Origin: Candidatus Omnitrophota bacterium
GTDB taxonomy: Bacteria > Omnitrophota > Gorgyraeia > JAHJTE01
DNA: 64,000 nt
Direction: 5' to 3'
Assembly: GCA_018830005.1 (NCBI GenBank)
Contig: JAHJTE010000002.1
Location: 331,809 to 395,808, forward strand
Part shown: positions 1-36,091 of the stretch, piece after piece
Layout of the letters: the number at the start of each line of letters is the position of its first letter
How positions within the stretch are numbered: the first letter of the stretch is position 1
Notes under the pieces: generated by a model
Told to the model about the DNA's origin: nothing
The model's database searches: none
Seen by the model: the letters and a program-made list of their open reading frames with translations, nothing else
Position numbers and translations under genes: made by a program

Positions 1-1202
1 AAAACTTTATAGCCATATCTATTTATAGTTTCAGACCGGCTAATTTCAGTTTCCTTAAGCATCTTAAGCGTCCCTATTGCTACGCTATCCAAGCGCAAAT
101 CAACAAGTTCATCTATTACATGCATAAATGAATTATAAGTTTCTCCTGGTAAGCCGAATATTATCTCTGTCGTAACATTAATGTTATTCTCGTGTGCCCA
201 TTTTACCGCCTCACGAAATTTTTCTAGCCTTATATTTTGCCTCCCGATATTTTTTAATACCGAGCCGGTCAACGTTTGGGAACTAATATTGAGCGGAATC
301 AAATCCCTTAATAACAAAATTATCTCTTTTATATTATTATTTACTTCCTTGTTGGTATATACGCGCAAGGCACTAGGATAGCTGCTCTTTGTTCGATTTT
401 GAGCAATGAATTTAGCTATCTCTAAATCTCTAGCAATAATACCGAAGTTTTCATCCGCAAAGCGAATTGTTCTATTTTTGGCATTGGCCTCTAAGTAACT
501 AATCTCTTTCTTTACTCTTTCTGTGTCAAATGAGCGTAGTCTATTCCAGGAATCCCTTGCAGAAACACAAAAAGAACATTTGAATGGACAACCTCTGCTA
601 GTCTGTAGAATCGGCATCAATTCGCTATTCAGAAATTGATCAAGGTATCCAGCCAGATAAGGCGACGGAAAAATATTGATATCTTCTATTAATGCCAATT
701 GTTTACCGCTGATTACTTGCTTCCTAGATCTAGATAAATAAAAGACACCATCAATAGAGGCTTGAAAAATAGCATCTCTGCCACCTTTAATGAAAACATT
801 TAGTAAATTAACAAAGGGAATCTCTCCCTCATTTGGAATCATAACATCTATACAAGGAAATTCCTCAAAATCCCTAAGACAATCTTGGGCTGTTTCAGGT
901 ACATTTGGTCCGCCTACAACTGTTATTATCTTTGGATACTTAGATTTCAAATAAGTTAATGCATTCGTAGTAAGCCAGCGACTCCAACCATACCAGGAGC
1001 ATCCAACAATATCAGGTTCTTTATTCTGAATCGCATTATGAAGCGACTCAAACGTCCTGAATAGCTTAATATCAACTGCCTCGCCTAATTTTGATACGGC
1101 ATAGGCCTTAATATAGCCTATTTCTAAAGGCACGGTAGCTGGACTAATCCCAAATTTGGTATTCGCAAGACTCGCTAAATATATCTGAACTTTTCTCTTC
1201 AA
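1..1202 (-). CDS. Cobalamin-binding (class B) radical SAM enzyme, partial; the C-terminus runs off the window edge
   Basis: My manual minus-strand translation gives an N-terminal B12-binding-like Rossmann region (…IVGCSWYGW…VVGGPNVPE…) followed by a CxxxCxxC cluster motif (SRGCPFKCSFCVSARDSW). It is absent from the ORF track because it is not closed within the window. The probable start is TTG at 1202, 9 nt downstream of the methyltransferase stop. Confidence 0.6.
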   Translation of the reverse strand, partial: MKRKVQIYLASLANTKFGISPATVPLEIGYIKAYAVSKLGEAVDIKLFRTFESLHNAIQNKEPDIVGCSWYGWSRWLTTNALTYLKSKYPKIITVVGGPNVPETAQDCLRDFEEFPCIDVMIPNEGEIPFVNLLNVFIKGGRDAIFQASIDGVFYLSRSRKQVISGKQLALIEDINIFPSPYLAGYLDQFLNSELMPILQTSRGCPFKCSFCVSARDSWNRLRSFDTERVKKEISYLEANAKNRTIRFADENFGIIARDLEIAKFIAQNRTKSSYPSALRVYTNKEVNNNIKEIILLLRDLIPLNISSQTLTGSVLKNIGRQNIRLEKFREAVKWAHENNINVTTEIIFGLPGETYNSFMHVIDELVDLRLDSVAIGTLKMLKETEISRSETINRYGYKV

Positions 1203-1211
1203 CTCAAACCT

Positions 1212-1883
1212 CTAAAAAATTAACCTAGATACCTTTTTCAACAGAAACATTACGTCAACATTGTCATCCTTGCGGTATTTGAGAAATTTTATCTTCTTAA
1301 CCCTTAAATCTTCAAATGTATCCGTGTAGATCTTCGGAAAATTTGTCTTCCAAAGCAAACTTTTCTTGCCTCTATAGTTGATTTCATTATAATCTTCGGC
1401 AAAATACTCAAACCCCCAAATATATTTACGACTGCATCTATGTATCTCGCTAATAGCTTTTTTTATATCTTTGGGATTAATATGTATGAGGACCCCTGAG
1501 GTAAAAACAATATCAAAATATTTATCCTTAAAAGGCAAATCAAAGATATTCCCTTTCAGGATATTAATATTTTTAGTTCTTTTTCTTGATAGTCTAAGTG
1601 CATAATCCTGTGGTTCAATGCCATACAAATTTTTAAAACCCATCTTTTGCAGACATAGTAATTGATTAGCGATGTTGCATCCTACTTCCAGAATCCTAGC
1701 ATTGCGGTCAATTTTATTTAGAAAAAGCCTATTTAGAGAAGTTCTTGTTATGCCGAAAAGGCTTTTGTATAATTTATCTAAGTCAGCAAGGGAATTATAA
1801 TTCCTATCAGTATAGGCCTTACCAAATTTGCCTGTCCATTCTTTTAACTGTTTGCTTCTCTTAACCATTATTTTTGCCTTCAA
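1212..1883 (-). CDS. Class I SAM-dependent methyltransferase, similar to pseudaminic-acid-associated methylases
   Basis: The 223 aa ORF has a glycine-rich SAM motif (ILEVGCNIANQL) and a DIVFTSGVLIHI motif II. It sits next to a PseA-like amidotransferase. Confidence 0.6.
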   Translation of the reverse strand: MKAKIMVKRSKQLKEWTGKFGKAYTDRNYNSLADLDKLYKSLFGITRTSLNRLFLNKIDRNARILEVGCNIANQLLCLQKMGFKNLYGIEPQDYALRLSRKRTKNINILKGNIFDLPFKDKYFDIVFTSGVLIHINPKDIKKAISEIHRCSRKYIWGFEYFAEDYNEINYRGKKSLLWKTNFPKIYTDTFEDLRVKKIKFLKYRKDDNVDVMFLLKKVSRLIF

Positions 1884-3006
1884 GTAGATCTTTATACACC
1901 GGTTCTTTCAAGAGCCATTCCTCATTAATCTTTTCAAAGATTTCCTGATTCCAAAATTTATCTGCTATATGCCAAAATTGCTTTGGTGTATAGCCGGCAA
2001 ATTTTATAAAATCTTCCATTATCCATGGATCTAATTTATGGTCATTTTCCATAATAAGCCTTTTACCTTCTTCCTTAGTCAAGCTTCCTTCTCTGATACG
2101 TCGGCTTACAATATCAGTTGTTCTCTGGAAGCCAAATTTAGGATACTTTAACCAGAAATTAAGCAGATAAGCAACGGAGTCTATTTGTTCGAAGTCTTCA
2201 ATATAGCCTTCTCTCTTCCATTCATGAGTTAGGTCTTTAAAGCCATACCTTTTGGCAATCTCAAGATGCTCTGTACTACTCCAGGGAATAAAATAGCTCA
2301 TAAAGATTACCTGTGGGTCTACGCGTTCAAGCTCTTCTTTTGTGGGTGGGATAAAGGGATTTAATTCTTTTTGAGAAAAGCCTTTTTTTAGCCAAAAATC
2401 AATATCTATTGTATTAAAACCTTGGGTGGTTTCATCTAATATATAGCTGTTAGCTGAATGAGTTTCGCTATCTTCCTTGCCACAATACTCGTATTCTGAA
2501 TTCTCCCCAAATACGACCAAAGAAATTCCAAGCTTTACAGCCATCTTCAAGCTAACAGTATAGGCAGCTACCTCTACAAAGCGTAAAGGATCACCAAATT
2601 CCTCAAAACCTATCCTTGCTGCGCGCCTTAAGACATCAGTACTTAAATTAAATAGGATATGATCACAATTAAAGGCATCACCAATATTGGTAAAATTACT
2701 CAATCCGGCCTTGGTCTTTGTGTATGGATCACCAACTGTTAGAAGAATCGGGTTCATCTTCATTTCAGTCTTGATCACATGAAGCAAGAAATGGCTATCC
2801 TTTCCACCACTTACCGGAACCATACAATCATAAGGACCATCGTCTCTTCTATATTTATCACAGAGCTTCTTTAACTCAGCTTTCCTTTTTGCCCAATTAA
2901 CACTCTTACGCCTTTCATAACTACGACAGGCCCCGCATACACCCTGTTTATCAAAGATAATTCTAGGCCTAGTATCAGGTAATAGACATCTTTTACAATA
3001 CTTCAT
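1861..3006 (-). CDS. N-acetyl sugar amidotransferase (PP-loop ATPase, PseA/PtmG/WbuX family)
   Basis: N-terminal MKYCKRCLLPDTRPRIIFDKQGVCGACRS zinc-ribbon and PP-loop SGGKDS motif; immediately downstream of pseB and pseC. Confidence 0.75.
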   Translation of the reverse strand: MKYCKRCLLPDTRPRIIFDKQGVCGACRSYERRKSVNWAKRKAELKKLCDKYRRDDGPYDCMVPVSGGKDSHFLLHVIKTEMKMNPILLTVGDPYTKTKAGLSNFTNIGDAFNCDHILFNLSTDVLRRAARIGFEEFGDPLRFVEVAAYTVSLKMAVKLGISLVVFGENSEYEYCGKEDSETHSANSYILDETTQGFNTIDIDFWLKKGFSQKELNPFIPPTKEELERVDPQVIFMSYFIPWSSTEHLEIAKRYGFKDLTHEWKREGYIEDFEQIDSVAYLLNFWLKYPKFGFQRTTDIVSRRIREGSLTKEEGKRLIMENDHKLDPWIMEDFIKFAGYTPKQFWHIADKFWNQEIFEKINEEWLLKEPVYKDLLEGKNNG

Positions 3007-3034
3007 TTTATTCCCCTCTCTTTTTCTAAATTAT

Positions 3035-4213
3035 CTAACATGATTTTATTTTATTAAATACATCGAAGATTATCCTTACAGTATACTTTATATCTTTATC
3101 ACTCATGCCTTGGTGCAAGGGAATGCTTATTTCTCTCTGATAGAATTCCTCAGCCTTAGGACATAATCCCTTTTTATATCCTAACTTTCTATAATAGGGA
3201 TGCCAATAAACAGGAATATAGTGAACCTGAACACCTATTCTGTTTTTTCTTAATTCATCGAAAATTAAACTCTTTTTAGAAATATACTTATTTTTCAGCC
3301 TTATTGGATACAAATGCCAAGAAGACTTTACGCCTTTGCCTTCAATCGGTAAATCAAAATAATCATTGTCCAAAAAGAGCTTTCTGTATTTTTCTACAAT
3401 TTCTCTTCTTCTTTTTATAAATCTATCTAATTTCTTCAGTTGAGATATTCCTAAGGCACATTGAAAATCAGTTATTCGATAATTAAAACCTAACTCCTGC
3501 ATCTCATAGAACCAAACGCCAATGGACTTAGTATTCTTAACGCTGAATTTTCTTCTCTCCTTAGTGATGCCGTGGCTACGAAGCAATAAAAGTCTTTCAT
3601 ATAGATCTTTCCTATTAGTTAAAACCGCCCCTCCTTCACCGGTTGTAATTGGCTTAACCGGATGAAAGCTAAAAACCGACATATCGGAATATTTACATGA
3701 GCCGATCTTAGCCCCAACGTAGTCTGCGCCTAATGCATGAGTTGCGTCTTCAATAACAATCAGATTATGCTTCTTTCTAATCTTATTGATTTCTCCTAAA
3801 TCACAAGGATGTCCGGCAAAATGAACGGGTATTAGGGCCTTTGTTTTCCTATTTATATTTTTTTTAATATTAACTGGCTCGATATTCGCTGAATCTTGCT
3901 GAATATCGGCAAAAACAGGCCTAGCCCCACAATAGAGAACACAATTTGCTGAAGCAACAAAGGTCAAAGGAGAAGTTATCACTTCATTGCAAGGTTCTAT
4001 TCCAGCTGCAAGGCAGGCAATATGCAACGCTGCGGTCCCGCTTGATACTGCAACTGCATATTGCGCATTGCAATAAGAAGAAAGCCTATTTTCAAATTCA
4101 CTTACCTTTGGTCCTTGAGTAAGCCAATCAGAATGCAAGACGCTGTTAACAGCTTTTAAGTCGTCACTATCTACAGATTGCCTCGAATAAGGTATAAATT
4201 TTCTATTAGGCAT
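3035..4213 (-). CDS. pseC: UDP-4-amino-4,6-dideoxy-N-acetyl-beta-L-altrosamine transaminase (DegT family)
   Basis: DegT/DnrJ/EryC1 PLP fold. The N-terminus YSRQSVDSDDLKAVNSVLHSDWLTQGPKV is typical of PseC. It has an 8-bp overlap with pseB. Confidence 0.8.
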   Translation of the reverse strand: MPNRKFIPYSRQSVDSDDLKAVNSVLHSDWLTQGPKVSEFENRLSSYCNAQYAVAVSSGTAALHIACLAAGIEPCNEVITSPLTFVASANCVLYCGARPVFADIQQDSANIEPVNIKKNINRKTKALIPVHFAGHPCDLGEINKIRKKHNLIVIEDATHALGADYVGAKIGSCKYSDMSVFSFHPVKPITTGEGGAVLTNRKDLYERLLLLRSHGITKERRKFSVKNTKSIGVWFYEMQELGFNYRITDFQCALGISQLKKLDRFIKRRREIVEKYRKLFLDNDYFDLPIEGKGVKSSWHLYPIRLKNKYISKKSLIFDELRKNRIGVQVHYIPVYWHPYYRKLGYKKGLCPKAEEFYQREISIPLHQGMSDKDIKYTVRIIFDVFNKIKSC

Positions 4214-5186
4214 TGTCTCTTTTTAATAACTTTTTCATCTGGCTCTTGGTAAGCCATCTCGGATTTTGATCACTACTATATCTAAAGCCATGATTTAATT
4301 TCTTCCCGCCTTTAAAATTTTTATCACTCCACCAATGAAAATCAGGCTCAATTATATAATAACCTTCGAATTCCCTCGTATGCCTAGCCTCATCTTCTGT
4401 CACCAATGCCTCGTGCATCTTCTCACCTGGTCTAATTCCTATTTGCTTAATCTTACAATCGGGAAGAATCAAATTTGCCAGATCTAAAATCTTCATACTG
4501 GGGATTTTTGGAACAAATACCTCGCCACCATTCATCATTTCAATACACTTAATAACAAAATTGACTCCTTGCTCTAAGGTAATCCAGAATCTTGTCATCC
4601 GCTTATCAGTAATTGTGAGCTCGCCAGATTTTTTCTGTTCTTTGAATTTTGGAATAACGCTTCCGCGACTTCCTATTACATTGCCATAGCGAACACAGCT
4701 AAACTTCGTTTTAGACTTTCCTGAATAAGAATTACCTTGAACAAAAATCTTTTCTGCACAAAGCTTTGTGGCCCCATATAGATTTATCGGGTTTACTGCC
4801 TTATCAGTGCTTAAAGCCATTACCTTATGTACTTTGTTATCTATAGCTGCATCTATTATATTCTGGGCACCGATGATGTTTGTCTTTACTGCCTCAAAAG
4901 GATTATATTCGCATGATGGCACCTGTTTTAAGGCCGCAGCGTGCACAACAATGTCAACGCTATCCATCGCCCTTTCTAATCTTTCTCTATCCCTTATATC
5001 GCCAATAAAAAATCTTAAATGTTCATTATTATTAAACTTTTTCTCCATCTCCCATTGCTTTAATTCATCCCGGCTAAAGATTCGTATAGCCTCTGGCTTA
5101 AATTTTTTCAGGACTATTTCTGTAAATTTTTGACCAAAAGATCCGGTTCCACCGGTGAGTAGTATTATTTTTCCATTCAAAGACAT
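4206..5186 (-). CDS. pseB: UDP-N-acetylglucosamine 4,6-dehydratase (inverting), FlaA1/CapD family
   Basis: LLTGGTGSFG Rossmann motif, SRDELKQWEM, and YGATKLCAEK catalytic YxxxK; near-colinear similarity to Helicobacter and Campylobacter PseB. Confidence 0.85.
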   Translation of the reverse strand: MSLNGKIILLTGGTGSFGQKFTEIVLKKFKPEAIRIFSRDELKQWEMEKKFNNNEHLRFFIGDIRDRERLERAMDSVDIVVHAAALKQVPSCEYNPFEAVKTNIIGAQNIIDAAIDNKVHKVMALSTDKAVNPINLYGATKLCAEKIFVQGNSYSGKSKTKFSCVRYGNVIGSRGSVIPKFKEQKKSGELTITDKRMTRFWITLEQGVNFVIKCIEMMNGGEVFVPKIPSMKILDLANLILPDCKIKQIGIRPGEKMHEALVTEDEARHTREFEGYYIIEPDFHWWSDKNFKGGKKLNHGFRYSSDQNPRWLTKSQMKKLLKRDNA

Positions 5187-5207: not shown

Positions 5208-7556
5208 TTAAATCTTATTAAAAACCAGATTGAAAAGGAACTTTCTAAATCTAAATCTATTTGCATAGTCATCAATCCTGCTTGATAATGAAAGACTATT
5301 GCGCTGACTCAAAAATGAACGCATGTTTTTATCAGTCTTTATTAGATTAACTTTGCTAAGCCGGCAGACTAAGCTATCATAGTCTTGCTCGAGGAATCTA
5401 ATCTTAGAAAACCAATAGCGACTTGCCTGGAAATCCTTGGACTCATATTCTAAATATGATAGAAAAAAAAGACATTGGATATATTCATCTATCTCTTCAT
5501 CTAATATCTGCCAAATATAGCTAACCCTTTCCAACACTGTCTTTTCATGGATTAGGCCATATTCTGGCTTACTATATTGCAGTTTATAGAAAGATGTTAC
5601 TTTATTAACCCAACTATGCATATCCCCCATGGTAATCCATCTTAAGTCTTCTATCTTTAAGTCAGATAACAAATAATTGAACAAAAACGGCCTTTTCTCT
5701 ACCGCTTGCCTAAACAAATTATTGGCCTGTCTATAACGTTTAAGTTTTAATTGCTCAATCCCAGAGTTGAAAAGTTGCGAAAAAGGACTGCTGTTTTTAC
5801 CCTCTGAATTATTTATTCTATATCCTTCTAAAGAATAATTTAAAGAAACCTCATTAACATTCGGAACTTGATTGAATTTAATTCTTACTGGAACCTTATC
5901 AAAGACCTGGGCAAAAACATACCTTGCATTATCATTATATTTGTCAGTAGCAGAGAATCCTTTATAATGGGCAAATTCTACGGGTTTAATTTTATTCACA
6001 TAAATATCTTCAACACCAAGTTTATCTAGGCCGTAAGTATCTTCTAAATTGCTTCTGATCACGTTTGCGGCTCGTATAAAATCATAAGTCATGAAACTAT
6101 TCACCAGCTTACCCCTGAATAAAGCTAATTTTATTGCCATTAGATTAGGTAAACAAAGGAGAACGAGCAAAAAAACTAAGATTGTCTCCTTTGTCATTAT
6201 TTTTAATCTTGTCGAATCCAATAAATGCATAATAAAATAGAATAGAACAGAACAAAACGCAATACAAAATATTGGAGACAAAAAGATAAAATATCGAGAA
6301 GGAATAGGATTACGTAAATATAGATACCCTAAAGCAAAAAGATACCAAACCCCTAATGTTATAAGCGACTTGTTTTCGAGAACAAACTTTTTAATAAAGA
6401 TAATTATTATCAAAATCCCCAGTATAAGACTATAGGAGTCAAGCTGAAACGGTATAAAATGATAAGTCCGCACAGAGTCGATTAAGAAAACATTCGTCAA
6501 AGGATGTATAAATGAAGCCAAAATACCTAAAAATGGCACTAAAAAATTATATGGTATTAGGAGTCTCTTCGCACCGCCCATTGCAATCAATAACAAAGCT
6601 AAAACAAACAATGCTATTATTGATAGCCACTTTAATTTTTTTATAAAATGATTGAATTGGGGTAATCGTAATATTACCCTTAACGTAAATAAACAAAATG
6701 CTCCCGAAAAAAACATTATTAGATACTTTGTAAATATAGGGATGTTAACATTGTGGAAAAACATAAATAGGCGTGTCTCGCCAAATGCAAATGTAACTAA
6801 AGGATATATTAGATAAGTAGCAAATAGGGGTAACCAGATATCATACTTTCTAATTCTCTCATCATGATTTTTTGAGCAGAATAATATATGAGTCATTATC
6901 ATTGCAGGCAGAATAAAAATACTTGCCCGGCTAAAAGAAGCAACTAGATTAAATATCAAGGTTAAAATATAATAGCTTCTGTATTTTTTATTGCTGCTAA
7001 TGAGTTCGTCTGTTCTCAGATAAAAATTTAAAACAAATAAAATAAAAAAGACTACTATCAAGTGCTGAAAGGCCATTGGCCACATGTAGGCATGAAAATG
7101 GGCAAAAAGCGTCAGATATACTAAAGCGGAAAAAAAGCTGATTTTTGAATTTAGGCCCAATTTCTTACAGACAAAAAATAACAAAATAGAACAAGCAAAA
7201 TGAAATAAAACAGAGACAAATATGAAATACCTCGCTAATGGTCCAAACAAAGACATAATAATAAAGCTATAAATCTTTAATGATGCGCTTGCCTGTTCTA
7301 TTGGCAGCTGACTAAAGAAAAATCTAATTAATTGAAATACCGATAGATTCTTTGCCTCTTGTGCAACCGTGGGTAAAAGCCAGAGCAGATCTTCTTCAAA
7401 AAAAGTATTTATAGCATGTGAATAAATAACTTTTATAAATAACGCAGATAAAAATATGCCAACACAGATATAGATCAATCTTATCGTGTTTATTTGCGAA
7501 AGTTTACTTACTCTATTGTGAAAAAAATTCTTCATGTGATTATTGCCTGTCAACAA
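5208..7556 (-). CDS. Large polytopic membrane protein (GT-C / ArnT-PMT-like glycosyltransferase candidate) with a C-terminal soluble domain
   Basis: 782 aa. The first ~450 residues contain more than 10 hydrophobic helices, followed by a hydrophilic C-terminal ~300 aa domain. It lies within the glycan operon. The functional call is inferential. Confidence 0.4.
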
Positions 7557-8511
7557 ATTGCCTATTCTTTACTCTTTTTAAATACCATTGATAGGTAATC
7601 TCCAAGCCTGCTTTAAGCTCAACCTTTGGTTTCCAGCCTAAAGAAGTTAAACTACTTGTATCAAGCAGTTTCCTGAAAACCCCGTCTGGTTTCTTGGTAT
7701 CAAATTTAATAGTCCCTTTAAAACCCACGATTTTCTTTAGCAATAGACTTAGGCTTTTTATAGAAATATCCCTGCCAGTTCCGACATTGATAGGCTCTAG
7801 GAAATTGCTTTTATTCATAAGAAATATACCTGCATCCACCAAATCATCTACATATATAAACTCTCTTCGAGGTCTTCCGGAACCCCAAATAGTAACGCTC
7901 CTTTTTTTTCTAATCTTTGCTTCATGAAATCTTCGCATAAGTGCAGGAATTACATGAGAGTTATTTGGATTAAAATTATCATCTGGACCAAACGTAGTAG
8001 CTGGTATTACTGAAATAAAATTAGTTCTGTATTCTCGATTATAGGCTTGGCACATCTTGATGCCGGATAATTTTGCTACTGCATATGGCTCATTAGTCTG
8101 CTCCAGGGGACCACTCAATAAATACCCTTCCTTCATTGGTTGCGGACATTTCCTAGGATAAACACAGGAAGAAGCAAAAAACAAAAGCCTCTTTACTTTC
8201 ACCTGCCAAGCTGAGTGGATTACGTTAGCCTGAATTAATAAATTCTCATAAATTAATTCTGCCGGTTGTGAAATATTAGCTGCGATACCCCCTTCTTTAA
8301 CTGAAGGTAAAAAACAATATTCTACTCTTTCTTTTTTAAAAAACGAAAACACCTGCTTCTGATCAGTAAGATTAAGCTTGTATGCATCACTTAAAAACAA
8401 GTCAACAAACCCAAGCTGCTTCAACTTAAGAGATAAAGTTCGACCTACTAATCCACTGCCTCCGGCAATAAAAATTCTTGATTTCTTATTCATAGGCGCA
8501 AATTTGAGCAA
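7540..8511 (-). CDS. fcl: GDP-L-fucose synthase family (GDP-4-keto-6-deoxy-sugar 3,5-epimerase/4-reductase)
   Basis: [16 protein letters not shown] catalytic motif, and [14 protein letters not shown], typical of Fcl/WcaG. With HddA/HddC adjacent it could act on GDP-6-deoxyheptose instead of fucose. Confidence 0.8.
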
Positions 8512-28157: not shown

Positions 28158-28178
28158 AATTTACTGTTTATCTAACCT

Positions 28179-29270: not shown

Positions 29271-29283
29271 GATTCAATCTCCG

Positions 29284-30183
29284 TCAAATTTTGGCTTTTA
29301 TCCTATCGCAATATTCTCTTACGGCGTCTTGCCAAGGCCTTAAGCTGGGGATTTTCTCAGATTTCAGCGGTGTATTAGTATTTTTTATACAGGTAAAAGG
29401 GAAATCTTTATAAGATGCCTTCTGAATCTCAGCATCCAATTTAAGACATTTAATAATCTCTTTCATTAATTCAAACAATGATGCCTTGCCTTGGTTAGCT
29501 ATATGATAAAGCCCAAAGGCAGAGCTTGACCTTAGAATACGCAAGATCTCCCCTGCTACATCTCTACTGTATGTTGGCGATGAAATAATATCAGCAGCAA
29601 TCTTTAAAGCCTTTTGCCCTTGTTTTATTCTTTGTAGCATCTTTTCAACGAATTGATTGTCTTTTGTAGTTTCACCAAACAATACAGATACTCTAAAAAT
29701 ATAATATGTCTTCGCTATTGCCTGTATGAGACAATCAGCACCATACTTTGTAAGCCCATATAAATTTAGAGGATGAGGCGCATCACTTTCAACATAATAA
29801 TCCTGTTTTTCATCATTAAAAACAGCATCTGTACTAAAGTGAACCAGCAAAAATCCGTATTCATTTGAAAGTTCAGCTAACGCTTTAGGATATAGGGTAT
29901 TTACTGCCAGGGTATCTTGCGGGTCATCTGCGCAAGGATCAAGGCCTAAGGAGGCGACAGTATTTAAAACTACCTCTGGCTTATTTTCTTTAATAAGTGC
30001 GTGAACCTGTCTTGAGTCTCTTGCATCAAAATCCTTGCTATTTTTCCCGATGACCTCAAAATCATTGTTTGTAAAAACCTCAGTTAAAGCAAGTCCCATT
30101 TTGCCTGTGGAACCAAGCAATAAGACTCTTCCTTTTAAAGGATTAGGAAGGCCTATCCCTGTGGATAATACCCTTTTACTCAT
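29284..30183 (-). CDS. NAD(P)-dependent sugar 4-reductase, RmlD (dTDP-4-dehydrorhamnose reductase)-like
   Basis: LLLGSTGKMG Rossmann motif and YGLTK catalytic motif; 299 aa. Confidence 0.65.
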   Translation of the reverse strand: MSKRVLSTGIGLPNPLKGRVLLLGSTGKMGLALTEVFTNNDFEVIGKNSKDFDARDSRQVHALIKENKPEVVLNTVASLGLDPCADDPQDTLAVNTLYPKALAELSNEYGFLLVHFSTDAVFNDEKQDYYVESDAPHPLNLYGLTKYGADCLIQAIAKTYYIFRVSVLFGETTKDNQFVEKMLQRIKQGQKALKIAADIISSPTYSRDVAGEILRILRSSSAFGLYHIANQGKASLFELMKEIIKCLKLDAEIQKASYKDFPFTCIKNTNTPLKSEKIPSLRPWQDAVREYCDRIKAKI

Positions 30184-31087
30184 ACCTGAGTGCCTCCTTA
30201 ACTGCGCATCTAATAGCTTTTGAGGAAATCCCGTAATAATCTCTCATGCCTTTCCTATTTTTAATCTTATGTATAAATTCATTACTTATGCCCATTTTCT
30301 TTAATCTAATGCTGAGGCCTTGCTCAAGAATCCAATCAGCAATGATACTACCTAGCCCGCCATCTATGAAATGTTCCTCAACCGTTATTACGGTATGTAT
30401 ATTCTTTAGCTCCTTAAGAAGAGCTGGGAAATCCAGAGGACAAATCTTAGGAACAGATATTACCTTCACTGTCCCCTTAAAACCTTCTACTGCAGAGATT
30501 ACTTCCTCCCCAATTGAACCGTGAAATAAAACTGCCACTTCCTTGCCTTCTCTTATTACTATAGGTTTCTCTATTGTCTTTGGCGGCCTTTTGTGAATCC
30601 TAGGCTCACCGCTTTTGGCAAGGCGTATATAAACCGGTAACTTACTAGAAAAAGCATACTCAGCACATTTTTCTGCCTCAAGCGGATCTGAAGGAGAAAG
30701 TATGACTAAATTAGGTAAACTCCTTGCAATTTGTATATCCTCAATAGAATAATGTGTGACACCTTGCGGTGCATACGTCAGTCCACTTCCAATCCCCACT
30801 AAAGTAATCGGTAATCTCTGATAACAGATATCATTTCTAACCTGTTCATAGCACCTGAAAAGAAGAAAAGGAATGATATTGTATAAAAAGATCTTATACC
30901 CGGCAAGCGCTAAGCCAGCGGAAAAACTTATCATATTCTGTTCGGCAACGCCAAGGTTTAAGAATCTATCTGGAAACGTCTTTTTAAATTCATCCAAGAC
31001 CCCGAAGCCAGCGTCTCCGGTTATTAAGAAGATTCTTTTATTCTCTCTGGCGCAATCTGTTATTCTACTGATTACACTATCTCTCAT
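30176..31087 (-). CDS. Transketolase, C-terminal section (split transketolase subunit B)
   Basis: Pyrimidine-binding and C-terminal transketolase domains (VAEQNM…); 4-bp overlap with the N-terminal-section gene. Confidence 0.8.
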   Translation of the reverse strand: MRDSVISRITDCARENKRIFLITGDAGFGVLDEFKKTFPDRFLNLGVAEQNMISFSAGLALAGYKIFLYNIIPFLLFRCYEQVRNDICYQRLPITLVGIGSGLTYAPQGVTHYSIEDIQIARSLPNLVILSPSDPLEAEKCAEYAFSSKLPVYIRLAKSGEPRIHKRPPKTIEKPIVIREGKEVAVLFHGSIGEEVISAVEGFKGTVKVISVPKICPLDFPALLKELKNIHTVITVEEHFIDGGLGSIIADWILEQGLSIRLKKMGISNEFIHKIKNRKGMRDYYGISSKAIRCAVKEALRYE

Positions 31088-31899
31088 TTTGCCTTAGGGC
31101 ATAAATTCTTAAGCGCTTCTCTTTTTAAATCATCCGTAACAATAAAATAATGCCATTTATTCTCATTTTCCATGAAGGGAACGCCTTTGCCTTTCACTGT
31201 CTGAGCTATTATTATTTTAGGCCTTCCTTTAGAAGGCTCTTTTAGGGCTTTAAAAATCTGCGTAAAATTATGCCCATCAACTTTATGTGTCTGCCATCCA
31301 AACGCCTCCCATTTTTCAATAATAGGCTCAAAATAGCATATCTCTGTTGGCCGGCCGTAACCTTGAAGATTGTTATAATCTAGGATTGCAGTAAGATTAT
31401 CTACTCCTAATTTTGAAGCAAATAAGGCACCTTCCCAGATAGAACCCTCTTGTGATTCTCCGTCACCAATCAAAGTAAAAATTCTTCTCTTATCTTTTTT
31501 GAGTTTATAGCCGTAGGCCATTCCGATTGCCATATTAAACCCATGCCCTAAAGAACCACAGGATGCCTCAATCGGCTTTGCGCTGAATCTATCAAGATGA
31601 GCAGGTAATGTTCCATCATTTTGAAAATATCTCTTTAAGGTATCCTGGCTAATAAACTTCTTTAAAGCAAAAACAGCATAAAGCGCCATAGCTGCATGCG
31701 CTTTACTAAGTATGAATATATCTCTGTTTTTCCAATCCCCTAGATCTATTTTAAGTTCATGGAAATAAAGAGCTACTAGTAAATCCACGCACGATAAAGA
31801 TGATCCTACATGTGCGCTTCCTGATCTACAGGCAACATCTAGAATCAATTTTCTTGCTTCATCTGCGATTCTTTTAAATTTAGTTTCTAGTCCTGGCAT
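31084..31899 (-). CDS. Transketolase, N-terminal section (split transketolase subunit A)
   Basis: GHVGSSLS and GDGESQEG TPP-binding motifs. Confidence 0.8.
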   Translation of the reverse strand: MPGLETKFKRIADEARKLILDVACRSGSAHVGSSLSCVDLLVALYFHELKIDLGDWKNRDIFILSKAHAAMALYAVFALKKFISQDTLKRYFQNDGTLPAHLDRFSAKPIEASCGSLGHGFNMAIGMAYGYKLKKDKRRIFTLIGDGESQEGSIWEGALFASKLGVDNLTAILDYNNLQGYGRPTEICYFEPIIEKWEAFGWQTHKVDGHNFTQIFKALKEPSKGRPKIIIAQTVKGKGVPFMENENKWHYFIVTDDLKREALKNLCPKAK

Positions 31900-31919
31900 A
31901 TTTGTTTTAAAGAAAACTT

Positions 31920-33008
31920 TTATACAAAATTTACGTGTTCTGGCGGATGTTTTAATCTCCAGAGATACCTATTTACTTCATCCAAACGGCAAACTTCGCG
32001 ACACTCATCTATATTCCATTTGCTCTTCATCATCTTACGAATTGCCTTTCTTTTCTTTCCCTTCCATATCTTACTAAATGTTGCTTTGTTAATATTGCCA
32101 TAGCGAAAACGTTCCTCTCCTAAAAAGCTGCTACAGGCATATAAGTCGCCATTTGAAGCAAGATAGGCCCAAAAAGGAAGTCCTAAACATTTCCTGTAAG
32201 GTCTCGGTTGCGTGATCTTTGACATAGTATGTTTTCTAAATATTATTCTAAAATCTTCTCTTTTATATTTCTTCAGGCTCTCTTCTAAGGATAGCAATCT
32301 CTTGTAATCAAGCTTGGATTTAAGACGGTTAATACTTAAAGGGTGTTGCGAATAGGGCTTTATAATAAGGTAATCAGCTCCAATGTCCCTTAAGATCTTT
32401 GCTACTTTTTCTACCTCATTATAATTCTCATTTAAAAGCAGAAATTGAACACCGATAGTGCAGGCGTATCCCATTTTCTTTTTTAATCTAACCGCCTCTT
32501 TAATATTATTGATAACCTTGTTAAAATCGTTTTGCTTAGTGCGGTGAATCAAAGAATAGGTCTTTGCACTTCCAGCGTTAAGGCTTATCCTCAGCCAGCT
32601 AAGTGAAGAAAGAATCTGCCCTGAGATATGTTTAGTTAACAATACGCCATTTGTAGTAATGGCTACATCTAGACCATTTTTCTTTGCGTATTTTACTAAG
32701 GAGGCTAGGTCTTTATTAAGCAAGGGCTCCCCCTCACCGGCAAACATTATGCTTTTTACTCCTCTGGCGGCAATGTCTTTTATAAATCCTTTCAGGATTT
32801 TGGTGTCTAGGCGGCATGCCTTATATCCTAAATAGTCTAGGCCGCAAAAAATACAACGATGATTACATCCACCATAAGGCGTAATCTCCATATAAATAGG
32901 ATAGATATCTTTTCCTAGCAGCCAATCAGAAACGCGTTGCGGATGATAGATTAATTTTTGACTTTCAATTCTATATTCATCCATTGTTTTTAATAAAATA
33001 ATCAACAA
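31920..33008 (-). CDS. Radical SAM enzyme with a SPASM/twitch-like C-terminus (paralog 2)
   Basis: GGCNHRCIFC cluster motif; C…NGDLYACSSF auxiliary motif; the identical C-terminal tail …HPPEHVNFV to the 28179..29270 product. The likely true start is the internal MDEYRIE Met at 32984. Confidence 0.7.
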   Translation of the reverse strand: MLIILLKTMDEYRIESQKLIYHPQRVSDWLLGKDIYPIYMEITPYGGCNHRCIFCGLDYLGYKACRLDTKILKGFIKDIAARGVKSIMFAGEGEPLLNKDLASLVKYAKKNGLDVAITTNGVLLTKHISGQILSSLSWLRISLNAGSAKTYSLIHRTKQNDFNKVINNIKEAVRLKKKMGYACTIGVQFLLLNENYNEVEKVAKILRDIGADYLIIKPYSQHPLSINRLKSKLDYKRLLSLEESLKKYKREDFRIIFRKHTMSKITQPRPYRKCLGLPFWAYLASNGDLYACSSFLGEERFRYGNINKATFSKIWKGKKRKAIRKMMKSKWNIDECREVCRLDEVNRYLWRLKHPPEHVNFV

Positions 33009-33537
33009 TTAAATGACAGATTGCAAGATGGGTAATCTCTGCGTATCCATAAGAAGAAGACGGAACATAAAAATTTATATCCCCTAATGTCCTCAAGGGA
33101 TTACCTTTTTCAAATCCAGAGAGGGTAATTATAAAGCAGCCTCGACCCCTTACCTCTTCTGTGGCATTTAAAATATTTTTTGATTTTCCAGAGCTACTTA
33201 TAGAAAATAAAATATCGCCCTTTCTAGAGAGCATCTCTAGAGGCTTTTGAAATACTGCCTCGTATCCCAAATCATTACTCAAACAAGTAAGCAAACTAGC
33301 ATCATTAAAGACAATGGCTCTCACCTTGGCGTTTTTCAAGAAATCCGTGGCAATATGGCTGGCAATAGATGCGCTTCCGCCATTGCCGATAAGCATAATC
33401 TTATTCTCTTTTTTATCTAGTGCTGTAATTAAACTGGTTATTTCAGAAATTGCCTTATCAAAAGATATAATCTTACCCATCTTTTCAGTTATCTCTATTT
33501 TTGAAAAAAGATCTGATAATTCTTTAAAATAGTGCAT
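32977..33537 (-). CDS. gmhA: Sedoheptulose-7-phosphate isomerase (SIS domain)
   Basis: 186 aa SIS-domain protein with GNGGSA…SSSGKS motifs, typical of GmhA/LpcA. Confidence 0.8.
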   Translation of the reverse strand: MHYFKELSDLFSKIEITEKMGKIISFDKAISEITSLITALDKKENKIMLIGNGGSASIASHIATDFLKNAKVRAIVFNDASLLTCLSNDLGYEAVFQKPLEMLSRKGDILFSISSSGKSKNILNATEEVRGRGCFIITLSGFEKGNPLRTLGDINFYVPSSSYGYAEITHLAICHLIVDYFIKNNG

Positions 33538-33549
33538 TTTATTTTCCTC

Positions 33550-35085
33550 TTATTTAAGAAGAGTTAATATATATTTAAATAAAGGCCCTAGCTCTACAGA
33601 AGAGCGATTTCCCACGATCAAAACCTTCATTGCCCCTGCGGCATTGCCTATAAAACCTACGACTTGCATTGGATTATCATTCAGTACCCAAGGTGATGTC
33701 AGGGAAAAATAGGCATCTCCTGCCCCAATCCTATCTACCACCTCTTTAGAGAAAACCGGAATCTCACTAAAACCATCTTTTTTCGAATATATCAAAGAAC
33801 CTCTGTGGCCTCGCGTAATAATTATCTTTTCACATTTCAGCTTCTTGCTTATTTCAAGAATTAATCTTTCTAAGTTAGAAAATTTATCATGACATGCAAG
33901 CCTTATTTCAGGTTCATCAATACAGATATAGTCAGCTCTAGGAAATTTCGTAATAAGATTAAAACCGAGGTTTGCGCTATTGGTCTGGACATTAACAGCT
34001 AAATGCGGCGCATTCTTAGAAAGCACATCCACTACCTTAGGTGTAATCAATCCATGGCCAAAATCAGCCACCAGCACCATATCAAATTCCCTAAGCTGAG
34101 ACTTTAAATAGCCACATATCTCATTTTCTAATTCTCTCGGCAAATGATTTGCATCTTCTAGGTAGCAAATTTCAAATAATTTATTCAAAAAATTAGGGTC
34201 AACAAATCTACGTTTAACTACCGTAGGGGCTTCTTTATTATAATAAAACTTGGTTTTTATATTTTTCTTGAGATGACTCTTAATAAAATCTGCGTAGTCA
34301 TTTTTCTTGCCGATACAACTAAGCAAAGTTACCTTCTTAGAAAACCCTGCTAAGTGATTAGCAGCAGCTAAAGCGCCACCTGCGAATGTCTCCTCATTTA
34401 AGAATCTAGTAGCAATTATGTTGTCCTTGGCAGACTTTCCCATACCCACACAGTAGTGATATTCATCTATGATTATGTCTCCTATGACAAGGATCTTTAT
34501 ATCTTGTATTTTCTTGAATCGATCAATTATATCTTTGGCAGGATACCGCCTCTTAAATTTATTAAGAAAATCTCTTGCCTCTTCCGAATAAGGAGCAAGA
34601 AATGTATTTATAATATTGGAAGAACTAAAGGTAATTTCATCAGTAAAATGAAGCATGCCGCCAACAGATTTAACTACTGCCTCTTCTTCGTAGATCTTGC
34701 CTGTAATATCGTCTTCCTTTCTTGCATAATCGCTGCCCTTAACATAGAAGTGCGGTTTTATCTTTTTCAAGGTCTCGACTGCTGTTGGCCATTCATTTAT
34801 TGCTACAAAATCAACTGCCTCTATAGCTGCAATGCTTTCTGCACGTAATTGCTGATTAAATATGGGCCTGCCCGGACCCCTATTCACATGTTCATCGCGT
34901 GTTAACGTAACTACCAGAATATCCCCCTTTTCCTTTGCCGCTTCGAAATGCTTCAGATGTCCTGGATGTAGAAGATCAAATACGCCATGGCAATGAACTA
35001 TTCTTTTGCCCTTTTTCCTAAAACCTTCTAGGATTTTGCTAAGTTCATTGAGTGTTTTAATTTTTGAATCAATATTTTTACCCAT
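33550..35085 (-). CDS. Bifunctional heptose-phosphate nucleotidyltransferase / PfkB-family sugar kinase (HldE-like, but with inverted domain order)
   Basis: An N-terminal cytidylyltransferase-like domain with HCHGVFDLLHPGH (HxGH); a C-terminal ribokinase/PfkB domain with DRIGAGDAY (GAGD anion hole). Confidence 0.7.
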   Translation of the reverse strand: MGKNIDSKIKTLNELSKILEGFRKKGKRIVHCHGVFDLLHPGHLKHFEAAKEKGDILVVTLTRDEHVNRGPGRPIFNQQLRAESIAAIEAVDFVAINEWPTAVETLKKIKPHFYVKGSDYARKEDDITGKIYEEEAVVKSVGGMLHFTDEITFSSSNIINTFLAPYSEEARDFLNKFKRRYPAKDIIDRFKKIQDIKILVIGDIIIDEYHYCVGMGKSAKDNIIATRFLNEETFAGGALAAANHLAGFSKKVTLLSCIGKKNDYADFIKSHLKKNIKTKFYYNKEAPTVVKRRFVDPNFLNKLFEICYLEDANHLPRELENEICGYLKSQLREFDMVLVADFGHGLITPKVVDVLSKNAPHLAVNVQTNSANLGFNLITKFPRADYICIDEPEIRLACHDKFSNLERLILEISKKLKCEKIIITRGHRGSLIYSKKDGFSEIPVFSKEVVDRIGAGDAYFSLTSPWVLNDNPMQVVGFIGNAAGAMKVLIVGNRSSVELGPLFKYILTLLK

Positions 35086-35095
35086 AACTATCCTT

Positions 35096-36091
35096 TTATT
35101 TAGAGAGATACTTAAACCACTCTTTCGTGGTCTCTCCTATCTTCTCCGGAGTCCATACCGGAGCATCCTTCCAGTAATCTATGTTTTCTAAAATCTTATC
35201 GACTCCCGCTTGAAATGAAACTTGAGGTTGCCAGGAAAGTTTCTCGCTAATCTTATGTATATCCGCCCACGTGCAATCAGGCTCACCCGGCCTTTTAGGG
35301 ATATGTACAACCTCCCCGCCTAAAATGGAAACCAGCTTATTTACGCTCTGTGGATTGCCTGTGCCTACATTGAAAATTCCTGTTTTTACCTTAGAGCTTG
35401 CAGCCCTAACAAAGGCACTTACAACATCAGAGACATAGATAAAATCTCTTTTTTGCTCACCGTCACCAACTACTGTAAAAGGCATAGACTTTAACTTTTG
35501 TGCTAAAAATACTCCAAAAACAGCTCCGTAGGTACCGGATGTCCTTGAACGCGGACCGTAGACATTAAATAATCTTAATGATATAACCGGCATCTTATAT
35601 ACTTTACCCCAATGAAAAACTATTTGTTCTCCTAAATATTTTGTTAATGCATAAGGATATTGGGGACTAATCTTAGCTGTCTCTTTAGTAGGCAAAACCT
35701 TGGCTATACCGTAACAAGAAGAAGATGCGGCATAAATCAACTTTTTAACTTTAGAAACTCTAGAGGCCTCAGCCACACAGGCTGTACCTGTAACATTTGA
35801 ATCATAGTATTTTATGGGATTAACTATTGAAGGAACAATATCAGCTAATGCTCCAAGATGAAATACTATATCTATTCCTTTAAAATATTCTATTATCTTA
35901 TCAAGTTTTGTTATGTCCTCTTTAATCAAGGTAAAATTCTTATTTTTTTTCTGATGAGCTAAGTTCTCAGCCCTACCAGTTGAAAAGTTATCAATTACAG
36001 TAACCTTATTGCCCTCTAAAAGCAAGCAGTCAACTAAATGACTACCTATAAAACCTGCCCCACCTGTAACTAAACACCTTTTCATCTTCAT
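35096..36091 (-). CDS. NAD-dependent epimerase/dehydratase (UDP-glucuronate decarboxylase / heptose epimerase-like extended SDR)
   Basis: LVTGGAGFIGSHL and YALTK catalytic motif. It is the first gene of the long operon. Confidence 0.75.
   Translation of the reverse strand: MKMKRCLVTGGAGFIGSHLVDCLLLEGNKVTVIDNFSTGRAENLAHQKKNKNFTLIKEDITKLDKIIEYFKGIDIVFHLGALADIVPSIVNPIKYYDSNVTGTACVAEASRVSKVKKLIYAASSSCYGIAKVLPTKETAKISPQYPYALTKYLGEQIVFHWGKVYKMPVISLRLFNVYGPRSRTSGTYGAVFGVFLAQKLKSMPFTVVGDGEQKRDFIYVSDVVSAFVRAASSKVKTGIFNVGTGNPQSVNKLVSILGGEVVHIPKRPGEPDCTWADIHKISEKLSWQPQVSFQAGVDKILENIDYWKDAPVWTPEKIGETTKEWFKYLSK

Follow-up and report, generated by a model that had tools for sequence, protein, structure and literature searches.

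In Campylobacter jejuni, Cj1427 and a pyridoxal 5′-phosphate (PLP)-dependent C3-dehydratase together give GDP-3-deoxy-4-keto-heptose (PMC10680097), and pyruvate-derived two-carbon branches are placed on 4-keto deoxysugars by YerE or by protein pairs resembling the alpha and beta subunits of the pyruvate dehydrogenase (PDH) E1 component, namely Plm8/Plm9 and AviB1/B2 (PMC4802897). A YerE-like thiamine diphosphate (ThDP or TPP) enzyme, JanthE, couples keto-acid donors to ketone acceptors (PMC12188165). Here, we analyzed a 64-kb stretch of DNA (the window) on a 403,156-bp contig of a Candidatus Omnitrophota metagenome-assembled genome (MAG; NCBI proteins MBU25414xx to MBU25415xx), in which a gene cluster at positions 1-36091 carries predicted relatives of these enzymes. 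Gene content and synteny make it likely that this cluster is a composite surface-glycan locus, in which three modules—A (25597-36091), B (7540-25569), and C (1-5186 and beyond)—lie end to end, the sugars are delivered on lipid carriers by glycosyltransferases of the GT2 and GT-C types, and the compact layout is a feature of the region. A first-pass annotation of the sequence had also seen a large and unusually complex surface-glycan locus here, and nonulosonate genes, heptose-type genes, GT2 and GT-C genes are indeed all present.

A six-frame listing of open reading frames (ORFs) gives 33 of them on the minus strand in the cluster, the first at 35096-36091 and the last (3-1202) truncated at the window edge, just as that annotation had described; coordinates below refer to minus-strand genes unless stated, with start codons chosen by ribosome-binding sites and the gene calls of the public record. 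Its further expectation, that the cluster runs past the window edge, is borne out by a third contig (L002), which is 100% identical to positions 1-4599 and runs about 8 kb further. After the cut gene, this contig carries on the same strand a B12-binding radical S-adenosylmethionine (SAM) enzyme, PseF-like and PseG-like proteins, a short-chain dehydrogenase/reductase (SDR), a YfcE-type phosphodiesterase, an ATP-grasp ligase, PseI, and a cut Epimerase_2/Glyphos_transf gene. Because L002 continues it in this way, the cluster comprises at least 44 kb and at least 41 genes, and its end is not reached there. A second MAG contig (L001) matches the window over 21 kb at 99.75% identity with unchanged gene order, and loci fetched from other genomes for comparison are labeled L003 to L072. 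The gene families named in the first pass—GmhA-, HldE-, HddA-, HddC- and Fcl-like proteins, two GT2 and PMT_2/GT-C proteins—were all found, and its pseB, pseC, amidotransferase and methylase all score above NCBIfam curated cut-offs. To these we add five radical-SAM genes (three B12-binding and two with SPASM domains), three thiamine-diphosphate systems, a LeuA-like gene, a class-I aminotransferase, and a third gene of GT-C fold, none of which had been noted.

Module B combines enzymes for activating, oxidizing, branching and methylating a sugar, to judge from their families. A TPP pair resembling PDH E1 alpha and beta (20777-22488) is the predicted two-carbon branching enzyme. Next to it lie a LeuA-like acyl-CoA:2-oxoacid condensing enzyme (22473-23627) and a class-I aminotransferase (23605-24813). 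The LeuA-like protein reaches 497 bits against the 2-isopropylmalate synthase model but ends at residue 384 and so lacks the leucine-binding regulatory domain; its gene is always paired with a class-I aminotransferase beside E1 alpha/beta, and the pair adjoins E1 alpha/beta in L003, L005, L011, L013, and L035. A further ThDP enzyme, a YerE/JanthE-like carboligase (17411-19201), stands between two B12-binding radical-SAM enzymes (15948-17414 and 19296-20780). Its best solved relative is JanthE (8rph, 336 bits), followed by 5ahk (253.5 bits), and the best true acetolactate synthase scores 237 bits; 5ahk was deposited as an acetolactate synthase and is presumably a Pseudomonas YerE homologue. By these scores, the carboligase is closer to the ketone-accepting YerE-like enzymes than to acetolactate synthases.

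The remaining genes of module B would prepare and finish the sugar. An SDR (14998-15930), the predicted maker of the 4-keto acceptor, matches PDB 6vo6 and 6vo8 over its full length (6vo6: E = 1e-116, residues 2-309) and is called Cj1427-like here. An HddA-like GHMP sugar kinase (10496-11500) is joined by an ATGA overlap to an HddC-like sugar-1-phosphate nucleotidyltransferase (9789-10499); they score 146.5 bits against NF049969 (cut-off 600) and 146 bits against NF049965 (cut-off 300), respectively. A DegT-family protein (8526-9728) is best read as a PLP- or pyridoxamine phosphate-dependent sugar 3-dehydratase of the E1/ColD type, because a histidine stands in place of the Schiff-base lysine. 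This residue aligns with His220 of CDP-6-deoxy-4-hexulose 3-dehydrase (another protein named E1), and the protein reads AHM where wild-type E1 reads AHH, its H220K mutant AKH, and perosamine synthase NK; the Fe-S ligand pattern known from E1 is conserved only in part. We considered and rejected a perosamine-type aminotransferase, given that histidine replaces the catalytic lysine. At one end of the module lies a GDP-fucose-synthase-like (Fcl-like) 3,5-epimerase/4-reductase (7540-8511; E = 8e-101 to Escherichia coli GDP-fucose synthetase) and at the other a GT2 protein resembling dolichyl- and polyprenyl-phosphate hexose synthases (AglJ/DPM-like; 24859-25569), a 72% identical orthologue of which lies beside the cassette in a Planctomycetota locus (L003).

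This gene set recurs far outside the Omnitrophota. The E1 beta-like protein has 829 homologues, and those at 56-76% identity come from Planctomycetota, bacteria of the candidate phyla radiation (CPR), and DPANN archaea. Taking one genome per species, we found it in 59 species genomes of bacteria and archaea (loci L008 to L066) and counted its partners within 10 kb. The carriers include Planctomycetota, Omnitrophota, five CPR lineages, Nanoarchaeota, Pacearchaeota, Woesearchaeota, Methanosarcinales (L022), and Nitrospira, as well as Magnetovibrio, Paramagnetospirillum kuznetsovii LBB-42 (L035), Colwellia, Terriglobia, and SAR11 (Pelagibacteraceae, L055-L061). E1 alpha is present at 58 of the 59 loci, an Fcl-like protein or other SDR at 45, the GHMP kinase at 41, the Cj1427-like SDR at 30, the B12 radical-SAM enzyme of the 15948 type and the DegT/dehydratase protein at 29 each, and the nucleotidyltransferase at 27. 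The class-I aminotransferase (18 loci), the LeuA-like protein (12), and GT2 (8) are rarer partners. The YerE-like enzyme was counted at none of the 59 loci, nor were the transketolase pair, the SPASM enzymes, the HldE-like protein, or the GT-C proteins, and the Pse genes (PseB, amidotransferase, methylase) occur at 0-1 of them. Together with the sugar kinase, the Cj1427-like SDR, and the B12 radical-SAM enzyme, the E1 alpha/beta pair is scattered over bacterial and archaeal phyla at 38-76% identity. A Planctomycetota chromosome holds a compact cassette in which 10 window genes have orthologues at 40-75% identity, and a compact cassette is also found in a Methanosarcinales MAG. Because identities peak in Planctomycetota, above those to the other Omnitrophota scanned, and the carriers are patchily spread, the comparison suggests that the module B core is a laterally transferred cassette.

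From the gene families, signature residues, synteny, and recurrence of the modules that we observe, we infer substrates, an order of steps, products, and an acceptor. In module B, the HddA-like kinase and HddC-like transferase would make a nucleotide-activated, probably GDP-linked, heptose-type sugar, C4 of which would be oxidized by the Cj1427-like dehydrogenase and the 3-hydroxyl of which would be removed by the E1/ColD-type dehydratase. The resulting 4-keto group could then serve as the acceptor for TPP-dependent carbon-carbon bonding by the E1 alpha/beta-like pair and the YerE-like enzyme, C-methylation would follow from the B12 radical-SAM enzymes, and the Fcl-like enzyme would fix the stereochemistry and carry out a reduction before the second GT2 moves the sugar onto polyprenyl phosphate. 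For the LeuA-like enzyme and the aminotransferase, possibilities are that they supply or elaborate the keto-acid donor, or that they make an acyl substituent for the ATP-grasp ligase. We tentatively propose, as a reading held with rather less than even confidence, that module B is an uncharacterized, laterally mobile pathway to a nucleotide-activated 3-deoxy, C4-branched, C-methylated heptose, a higher-carbon analogue of yersiniose, which would serve as a surface decoration in lineages from Omnitrophota and Planctomycetota to CPR, DPANN, Methanosarcinales, Nitrospira, and SAR11, and which in Omnitrophota would be delivered by a new, lineage-specific GT-C family with the 775-aa protein described below as its member in the window. 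Its core would be the E1 alpha/beta-like pair, the Cj1427-like dehydrogenase, the GHMP kinase, the nucleotidyltransferase, the 3-dehydratase, and the B12 radical-SAM enzymes, to which the YerE-like, LeuA-like, and aminotransferase genes have been added in this locus.

Module A opens with an SDR (35096-36091), a GalE/WbpP/HldD-like nucleotide-sugar epimerase or dehydratase by its Pfam Epimerase domain and PDB matches, for which all NCBIfam matches fall below cut-off (heptose_epim, 142 versus 274.6). The next gene encodes an HldE-like bifunctional protein of swapped domain order (33550-35085), with an N-terminal cytidylyl/adenylyltransferase and a C-terminal PfkB kinase, the reverse of E. coli HldE (kinase first, adenylyltransferase second). 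Its NCBIfam scores lie far below cut-off (159 versus 521; for the single-domain models, 114 versus 345 and 103 versus 181.5). The 120 homologues listed for it are all 506-519 amino acids (aa) long, most of them exactly 511, and 69-88% identical; among them, every named source is Omnitrophota, with one exception labeled Patescibacteria. A GmhA-like sedoheptulose-7-phosphate isomerase of the SIS family follows (32977-33537; Pfam SIS_2; TIGR00441, 105 bits, cut-off 209.45), and then a radical SAM/SPASM protein (31920-32984), a split transketolase-like TPP enzyme (31084-31899 and 30176-31087), an RmlD-like reductase (29284-30183), and a second radical SAM/SPASM protein (28179-29270). The two SPASM proteins are 32% identical, and their nearest solved relatives, matched weakly, are the sugar radical-SAM enzymes BlsE and DesII. 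The module closes with a GT2 resembling polyprenyl-phosphate sugar synthases of the ArnC/PgfS/PpgS type (27390-28157), a xylose-isomerase-like TIM-barrel protein (26650-27357), and two small proteins with three transmembrane (TM) helices (26133-26645 and 25597-26124).

Three other Omnitrophota genomes (L068-L070) show the same series of SDR (328-330 aa), HldE-like protein, SIS protein, radical SAM/SPASM, TPP pair, and GT2, followed by a variable tail. In L069, the tail consists of a radical-SAM protein, a protein of about 220 aa, and two small proteins (173 and 179 aa) as in the window; in L070, it consists of a TIM barrel and unannotated proteins. Because the series recurs in all three and stands alone between unrelated genes in L069, module A is, by synteny, a conserved unit of the Omnitrophota lineage. 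The TPP pair varies at its fixed position (L068 15392-16694, L069 13185-15214, and L070 13163-14474, compared with 30176-31899 in the window): some pairs have Transketolase_N with a short Transket_pyr domain, one has E1_dh with Transket_pyr/C, and the window pair has Transketolase_N with Transket_pyr/C. This looks like replacement by a nonorthologous enzyme in place. In the proposed pathway, sedoheptulose-7-phosphate would be converted by the GmhA-like protein, the swapped HldE-like protein, and the SDR, and the sugar would then be remodeled by the TPP enzyme and the two radical SAM/SPASM enzymes before the GT2 loads this heptose-type product onto polyprenyl phosphate. Just upstream of the cluster lies a ManC-type mannose-1-phosphate guanylyltransferase/mannose-6-phosphate isomerase (36277-37704; Pfam NTP_transferase, MannoseP_isomer, and ManC_GMP_beta-helix), which might supply a GDP-sugar; no such gene precedes module A in L068-L070, so it is not part of the conserved unit.

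Module C corresponds to the synthesis of pseudaminic acid (Pse). PseB, the inverting UDP-GlcNAc 4,6-dehydratase (4206-5186; TIGR03589, 521 bits, cut-off 407.75), the PseC aminotransferase (3035-4213; TIGR03588, 518.7 bits, cut-off 423.5), the WbuX N-acetyl-sugar amidotransferase (1861-3006), and the Pse-associated methylase (1212-1868) all exceed their NCBIfam curated cut-offs, and so does PseI just past the window in L002 (TIGR03586, 453 bits, cut-off 340.25). PseG-like and PseF-like proteins on the same contig do not (113 bits, cut-off 153.55, and 122.6 bits, cut-off 205.7). For the methylase, a TTG start was rejected in favor of the ATG at 1868. The gene at the window edge (3-1202) encodes a KedN5-like B12 radical-SAM protein, which is 693 aa in full on L002. 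Positions 3398-12739 of L002 hold an ATP-grasp ligase, an SDR, and a YfcE-type phosphodiesterase and no recognizable PseH. Because these three occur without PseH, the N-acyl group of the nonulosonate may be one other than acetyl. Module C would thus make CMP-pseudaminic acid derivatives with acetamidino and methyl groups.

Delivery would fall to two GT2 proteins and three proteins of GT-C fold, which point to glycosylation outside the cytoplasm. Two tandem GT-C membrane glycosyltransferases (PMT_2/GT39-like; 11504-14992), with about 9-10 TM helices each, are paralogues with 49% amino-acid identity and 68% nucleotide identity over 300 nt; they score 27.8 and 27.2 bits against PMT_2 (Pfam gathering score, 26.1), and their genes, starting at 11504 and 13286, have the lowest GC content in the window (0.29 and 0.32). 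The third is a 775-aa membrane protein of an unannotated family at the junction of modules B and C (5208-7535), for which no Pfam or NCBIfam match was found even at E = 1. Its 11-13 predicted TM helices precede a stretch of about 300 largely helical residues that resembles tetratricopeptide repeats (TPR), and all those of its 33 homologues that carry a source name come from Omnitrophota. A confident AlphaFold model built from the homologue alignment (pLDDT 86.8, pTM 0.88) was compared with the PDB by Foldseek, in which the best 17 matches are all catalytic subunits of oligosaccharyltransferases (STT3/PglB/AglB), with probability 1.0, and ArnT and AftA rank lower. In GT-C enzymes, an acidic first-loop motif sits just after TM helix 1, and in this family E47 and D49 of an E-x-D motif at that place are near-invariant. 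The protein has no WWDYG motif and no periplasmic domain of the oligosaccharyltransferase (OST) type. We therefore read it, on the basis of the model, as a probable new GT-C-fold family and not as an oligosaccharyltransferase proper. Homologues lie in L007 (5484-7796), L071 (10001-12310, on the 1.55-Mb chromosome CP070837.1), and L072 (10001-12295), so that in four genomes a protein of about 770 aa stands between heptose-type and nonulosonate genes. In these three loci, GHMP kinase, nucleotidyltransferase, B12 radical SAM, TPP pair, dehydratase, and Fcl-like genes lie upstream—headed by a PMT_2 GT-C protein in L071 and probably in L007—and nonulosonate genes lie downstream. The three GT-C-fold transferases would attach lipid-linked sugars to an acceptor at the outer face of the inner membrane, and this acceptor could be lipopolysaccharide (LPS), another polysaccharide, or protein.

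The first-pass annotation had placed its emphasis on layout, as a distinguishing super-operon with pervasive translational coupling, and here our results differ. Its four ATGA overlaps (TCAT on the plus strand) are all present, at 10496-10499, 17411-17414, 20777-20780, and 31084-31087. Its range of gaps of at most 30 bp or overlaps of 4-32 bp comes close, but five of the 32 cluster junctions have gaps above 30 bp (32, 45, 57, 60, and 94 bp; the median gap is 8.5 bp, and 11 junctions overlap), and several of the long overlaps are artifacts of taking the longest ORF (e.g., 15948-17456, for which 17414 is the better start). The noncoding gap at 36092-36276 (185 bp, AT-rich), named there as the only sizeable one, is the largest noncoding stretch of the window once rpmE is counted; a 291-bp region at 43228-43518 that had seemed larger was rejected since it holds this gene. 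The gap is a candidate transcription-unit start, and one could envisage a single dedicated super-operon of at least 33 genes, transcribed as a unit from it, in which coupling was selected for fixed enzyme proportions. The unbroken co-orientation, the 11 overlapping junctions with their four ATGA sites, the position of the largest gap directly upstream, and the lack of enrichment of terminator-like sites within the cluster would all fit. Yet the same features describe the 28-kb housekeeping flank, whose 27 genes of unrelated functions have equal orientation, overlaps, and spacing. Every one of the 60 window genes (rpmE and the 59 ORFs that reach 80 aa) is encoded on the minus strand; the GC skew stays negative from end to end, and coding sequence fills about 98% of the window. 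The flank has a median gap of 10 bp over 26 junctions, with ATGA at 44811, 52996, and 57051, and cluster and flank are alike in overlaps (11/32 versus 5/26, Fisher p = 0.25) and in spacing (Mann-Whitney p = 0.23). In the other Omnitrophota loci fetched, nearly all genes are likewise co-directional, non-glycan genes included. Because the flank matches the cluster in orientation, overlaps, and spacing, and the other loci are co-directional as well, tight one-directional packing characterizes the window as a whole, along with the other Omnitrophota loci seen, and does not set the cluster apart. Moreover, the modules occur apart in other genomes, so each must be expressible alone, and the internal gaps of 45-94 bp fall near the proposed module and sub-block breaks: the 45-bp gap (24814-24858) just inside module B and those of 57, 60, and 94 bp (13229-13285, 9729-9788, and 19202-19295) around its sub-blocks. 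In consensus scans, promoter-like and terminator-like sites are as frequent as in shuffled sequence, which makes them uninformative on operon structure, and Omnitrophota promoters have not been characterized. The only promoter-like site in 36092-36276 is weak (minus strand, TTGATT at 36167-36162, 17 nt, TAGCAT at 36144-36139) and scores under the scan threshold, and the gap has no Rfam match. Overall, we consider a dedicated super-operon unlikely.

What the locus decorates was weighed in a similar way. PseB, PseC, PseI, an acetamidino-forming amidotransferase, and a Pse methylase are typical of flagellin or pilin glycosylation islands of the Campylobacter/Helicobacter type, in which Pse derivatives are placed on a filament protein, and flagellin was one of the targets that the first pass had named. 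It is the least likely of them and, in our view, very improbable: the 64 kb hold no flagellar or pilus structural genes and no Maf, PseD, or PseE gene, the Pfam labels of the L002 extension include none either, nonulosonate synthesis takes up only about 5 kb of the 36 kb in the window (about 13 kb of the 44 kb seen), and GT-C enzymes act outside the cytoplasm with lipid-linked donors, whereas flagellin is glycosylated inside the cell. A role in core LPS biosynthesis, that is, lineage-wide heptosylation and decoration of the lipid A-core and no variable island, would be favored by module A, which resembles the ADP-heptose pathway (SDR, HldE-like, GmhA-like) and is highly conserved in Omnitrophota, by the likeness of the GT-C/GT2 pairs to lipid A decoration by ArnC/ArnT, and by the presence of the cluster in both 99.75% identical strains. 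We nevertheless give this reading little weight. Genes for a heptosyltransferase (GT9), Kdo, or lipid A are missing from the window, GT9 is likewise missing from the Pfam labels of the L002 extension, the conserved pieces are surrounded by different genes in different Omnitrophota (L007 has an extra DAO gene and WbuX2/HisH/HisF, the TPP pairs differ, and L072 has another nonulosonate set), the module B core is closest to Planctomycetota and scattered across phyla in a way that suggests lateral transfer, and GC and third-position GC (GC3) are lower in the cluster (0.36/0.32) than in the flank (0.40/0.36, p ~4e-6). Lineage-wide conservation, which the first-pass annotation held would mark core LPS, thus came out both ways: module A and the order of module B, 775-aa protein, and nonulosonate genes recur in Omnitrophota, but gene content varies. 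As for an island, no Rfam match to a riboswitch, tRNA, or other RNA was found in the window, so it shows no tRNA-linked integration site, and a repeat search revealed neither flanking direct repeats nor inverted repeats resembling insertion sequences, the GT-C paralogue pair being the only real repeat. Hypervariable polysaccharide cassettes have been reported in SAR11 and Omnitrophota (bioRxiv 10.64898/2026.05.20.726742), which makes large plastic glycan loci in Omnitrophota unsurprising. The locus is best described, from these comparisons, as a lineage-typical surface-glycan locus whose parts can be exchanged, and it is neither an island specific to one strain nor an invariant LPS core. Finally, the aminotransferase, LeuA-like, E1 alpha/beta, YerE-like, and B12 radical-SAM enzymes could instead make a small-molecule natural product or an unusual acid or amino acid that perhaps acylates sugars: 2-oxo acids are the usual substrates of LeuA-like enzymes and class-I aminotransferases, the downstream genes include an ATP-grasp ligase while no PseH acetyltransferase was found, and JanthE accepts many free keto acids and ketones (PMC12188165). 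This too seems improbable, since E1 alpha/beta stands mostly beside the sugar kinase, nucleotidyltransferase, Cj1427-like SDR, and 3-dehydratase, with the LeuA-like gene a partner at only a minority of loci, no genes for polyketide synthases, nonribosomal peptide synthetases, or carrier proteins are present, and the cassette occurs in the tiny genomes of CPR, DPANN, and SAR11. A phosphonate pathway for the LeuA-like, TPP, and P-methyltransferase-like radical-SAM genes was rejected, as the window contains no phosphoenolpyruvate mutase domain.

Several observations weigh against our reading of a composite surface-glycan locus and its proposed chemistry. The GmhA, HldE, HddA, HddC, Fcl, RmlD, PseF, and PseG assignments are below NCBIfam equivalog cut-offs, and because this applies to most of the enzymes, their substrates may differ from those that we propose. 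PDB 6vo6, which we take to be the C. jejuni GDP-heptose C4-dehydrogenase Cj1427, could not be confirmed as such, and the LeuA-like enzyme and class-I aminotransferase have no clear role in the proposed pathway. There is no HAD-type phosphatase that could be GmhB in the window and no acetyltransferase domain that could be PseH in positions 1-36091 or in the 8-kb L002 extension, although a pseH gene may follow further along the contig. For the 775-aa protein, the Foldseek TM-scores are only 0.30-0.38. No flippase was identified in the cluster, and the 46 kb seen contain no initiating phosphoglycosyltransferase, Wzx/Wzy, Wzz, or ABC exporter, which leaves a route of assembly that is incomplete or encoded elsewhere. 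At the level of Pfam, the window lacks Bac_transf, Glycos_transf_4, Polysacc_synt, Wzy_C, Wzz, and ABC2 domains; in another Omnitrophota locus (L070), Bac_transf and Wzy_C lie upstream of module A. In addition, the two strains that share the cluster and its gene order are near-identical, and they are two only.

Beyond the cluster, the housekeeping flank holds manC, trpC, trpD, trpG, aroA, prmC, prfA, rpmE, rho, coaE, polA, a carbon monoxide dehydrogenase/acetyl-CoA synthase (CODH/ACS) block with genes for formate-tetrahydrofolate ligase, FolD, and methylenetetrahydrofolate reductase (MTHFR), and rnhB, rplS, trmD, and tgt. The gene for ribosomal protein L31, rpmE (67 aa, 43288-43491), lies between rho and prfA and is missed at an ORF minimum of 80 aa. 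The Wood-Ljungdahl block (49516-60156) includes acetyl-CoA synthase (49516-51699), CODH (53455-55383), and formate-tetrahydrofolate ligase (58465-60156) together with a pyridine-nucleotide-disulfide oxidoreductase, a ferredoxin, a CooC-like ATPase, MTHFR, FolD, and an FTCD_C cyclodeaminase-like protein. This block suggests that the metabolism encoded by the MAG is acetogenic or of the C1 type. A 253-aa ORF on the plus strand (55429-56190) mirrors the CooC-like gene almost exactly (55425-56183) and was rejected as a shadow ORF, the domain matches being on the minus-strand product. At the window end, a cut gene (63046-63999) joins the C-terminal part of an amino-acid permease domain to an EIIA-2 domain of the phosphotransferase system (PTS), an unusual fusion.

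Large co-directional sugar clusters are common, and the layout seen here is ordinary and regional; the main interest of the locus lies in its predicted sugar chemistry and in the broad distribution of module B, not in operon organization. Taken one by one, the elements all have known counterparts, in the Pse pathway, in the GDP-heptose toolbox, in branching of the YerE and PDH types, and in lipid-carrier glycosylation of the Arn/Gtr/PMT type. However, in the literature we found no description of three TPP systems, at least six radical-SAM enzymes, a LeuA-like/aminotransferase pair, and a GT-C family without a domain model in one surface-glycan locus, and nothing relevant on Omnitrophota and pseudaminic acid or on cobalamin radical-SAM enzymes that act on nucleotide sugars in polysaccharides. 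From a GDP-heptose toolbox that is combined with three thiamine-dependent carbon-carbon bond-forming systems and at least six radical-SAM enzymes, one would predict higher sugars that are branched and C-methylated, and we know of no sugars of this kind in surface glycans. The spread over 59 genomes, among them CPR, DPANN, SAR11, and at least one cultured bacterium, P. kuznetsovii LBB-42, makes the question experimentally approachable; the block in the latter (L035) comprises aminotransferase, B12 radical-SAM, LeuA-like, and E1 alpha/beta genes. On the side of delivery, a GT-C-fold family without a domain model is fixed at the sugar-module junction in Omnitrophota, a phylum whose surface biology and host interactions are scarcely known.

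In its overall form, the locus can be set beside the rfb locus of Leptospira, a long co-directional surface-polysaccharide locus. With rfb and the SAR11 and Omnitrophota cassettes it shares tens of co-oriented sugar genes and a GC content below that of the surrounding genome; it differs in that co-orientation extends to the housekeeping neighbors and in that two strains are identical in gene order. Compared to the Pse pathway (PseB, PseC, PseH, PseG, PseI, and PseF, with a PseA-type amidotransferase and a methylase), five enzymes above cut-offs and their usual clustering agree, whereas PseH is missing from the seen sequence, PseF-like and PseG-like proteins fall below cut-off, and the genes are interspersed with those for two B12 radical-SAM enzymes, an ATP-grasp ligase, an SDR, and a phosphodiesterase. 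The lipid-carrier GT-C systems (ArnC/ArnT, GtrA/B/C, mycobacterial PpgS, protein O-mannosyltransferases, and PglB/AglB) share with this locus a small soluble GT2 beside a multispan GT-C protein. Within this group, no GtrA-type flippase, as found in Gtr systems, was recognized here; with PglB/AglB, the 775-aa protein appears from its model to share an OST-like transmembrane fold and the acidic motif after TM helix 1, but it lacks WWDYG and the OST periplasmic domain and has a helical, TPR-like C terminus instead.

The closest parallels concern the sugars themselves. The GDP-heptose toolbox of the C. jejuni capsule, which comprises GmhA, HddA, GmhB, HddC, Cj1427, the PLP-dependent C3-dehydratase, epimerases, and C4-reductases (PMC10680097), has homologues here of its kinase, nucleotidyltransferase, C4-dehydrogenase, 3-dehydratase (with histidine for lysine), and Fcl-like epimerase/reductase, and a GmhA-like protein is encoded in the cluster. 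In contrast to C. jejuni, GmhB is absent from the window, the kinase and transferase score far below the HddA and HddC cut-offs, and delivery is apparently by GT2 and GT-C proteins and not by capsule polymerases; C. jejuni, in turn, does not have the TPP carbon-carbon, B12 radical-SAM, LeuA-like, and aminotransferase enzymes that are combined in this locus. With the pathways to yersiniose (YerE) and to paulomycose and eurekanate (Plm8/Plm9 and AviB1/AviB2), the cluster shares a predicted 4-keto, 3-deoxy nucleotide sugar beside both types of branching enzyme. It departs from them in that both types occur together, with a third TPP pair in module A, in that the sugar is probably a GDP-heptose and not a CDP- or dTDP-hexose, and in that the setting is a surface-glycan locus and not an antibiotic cluster or the Yersinia O-antigen.

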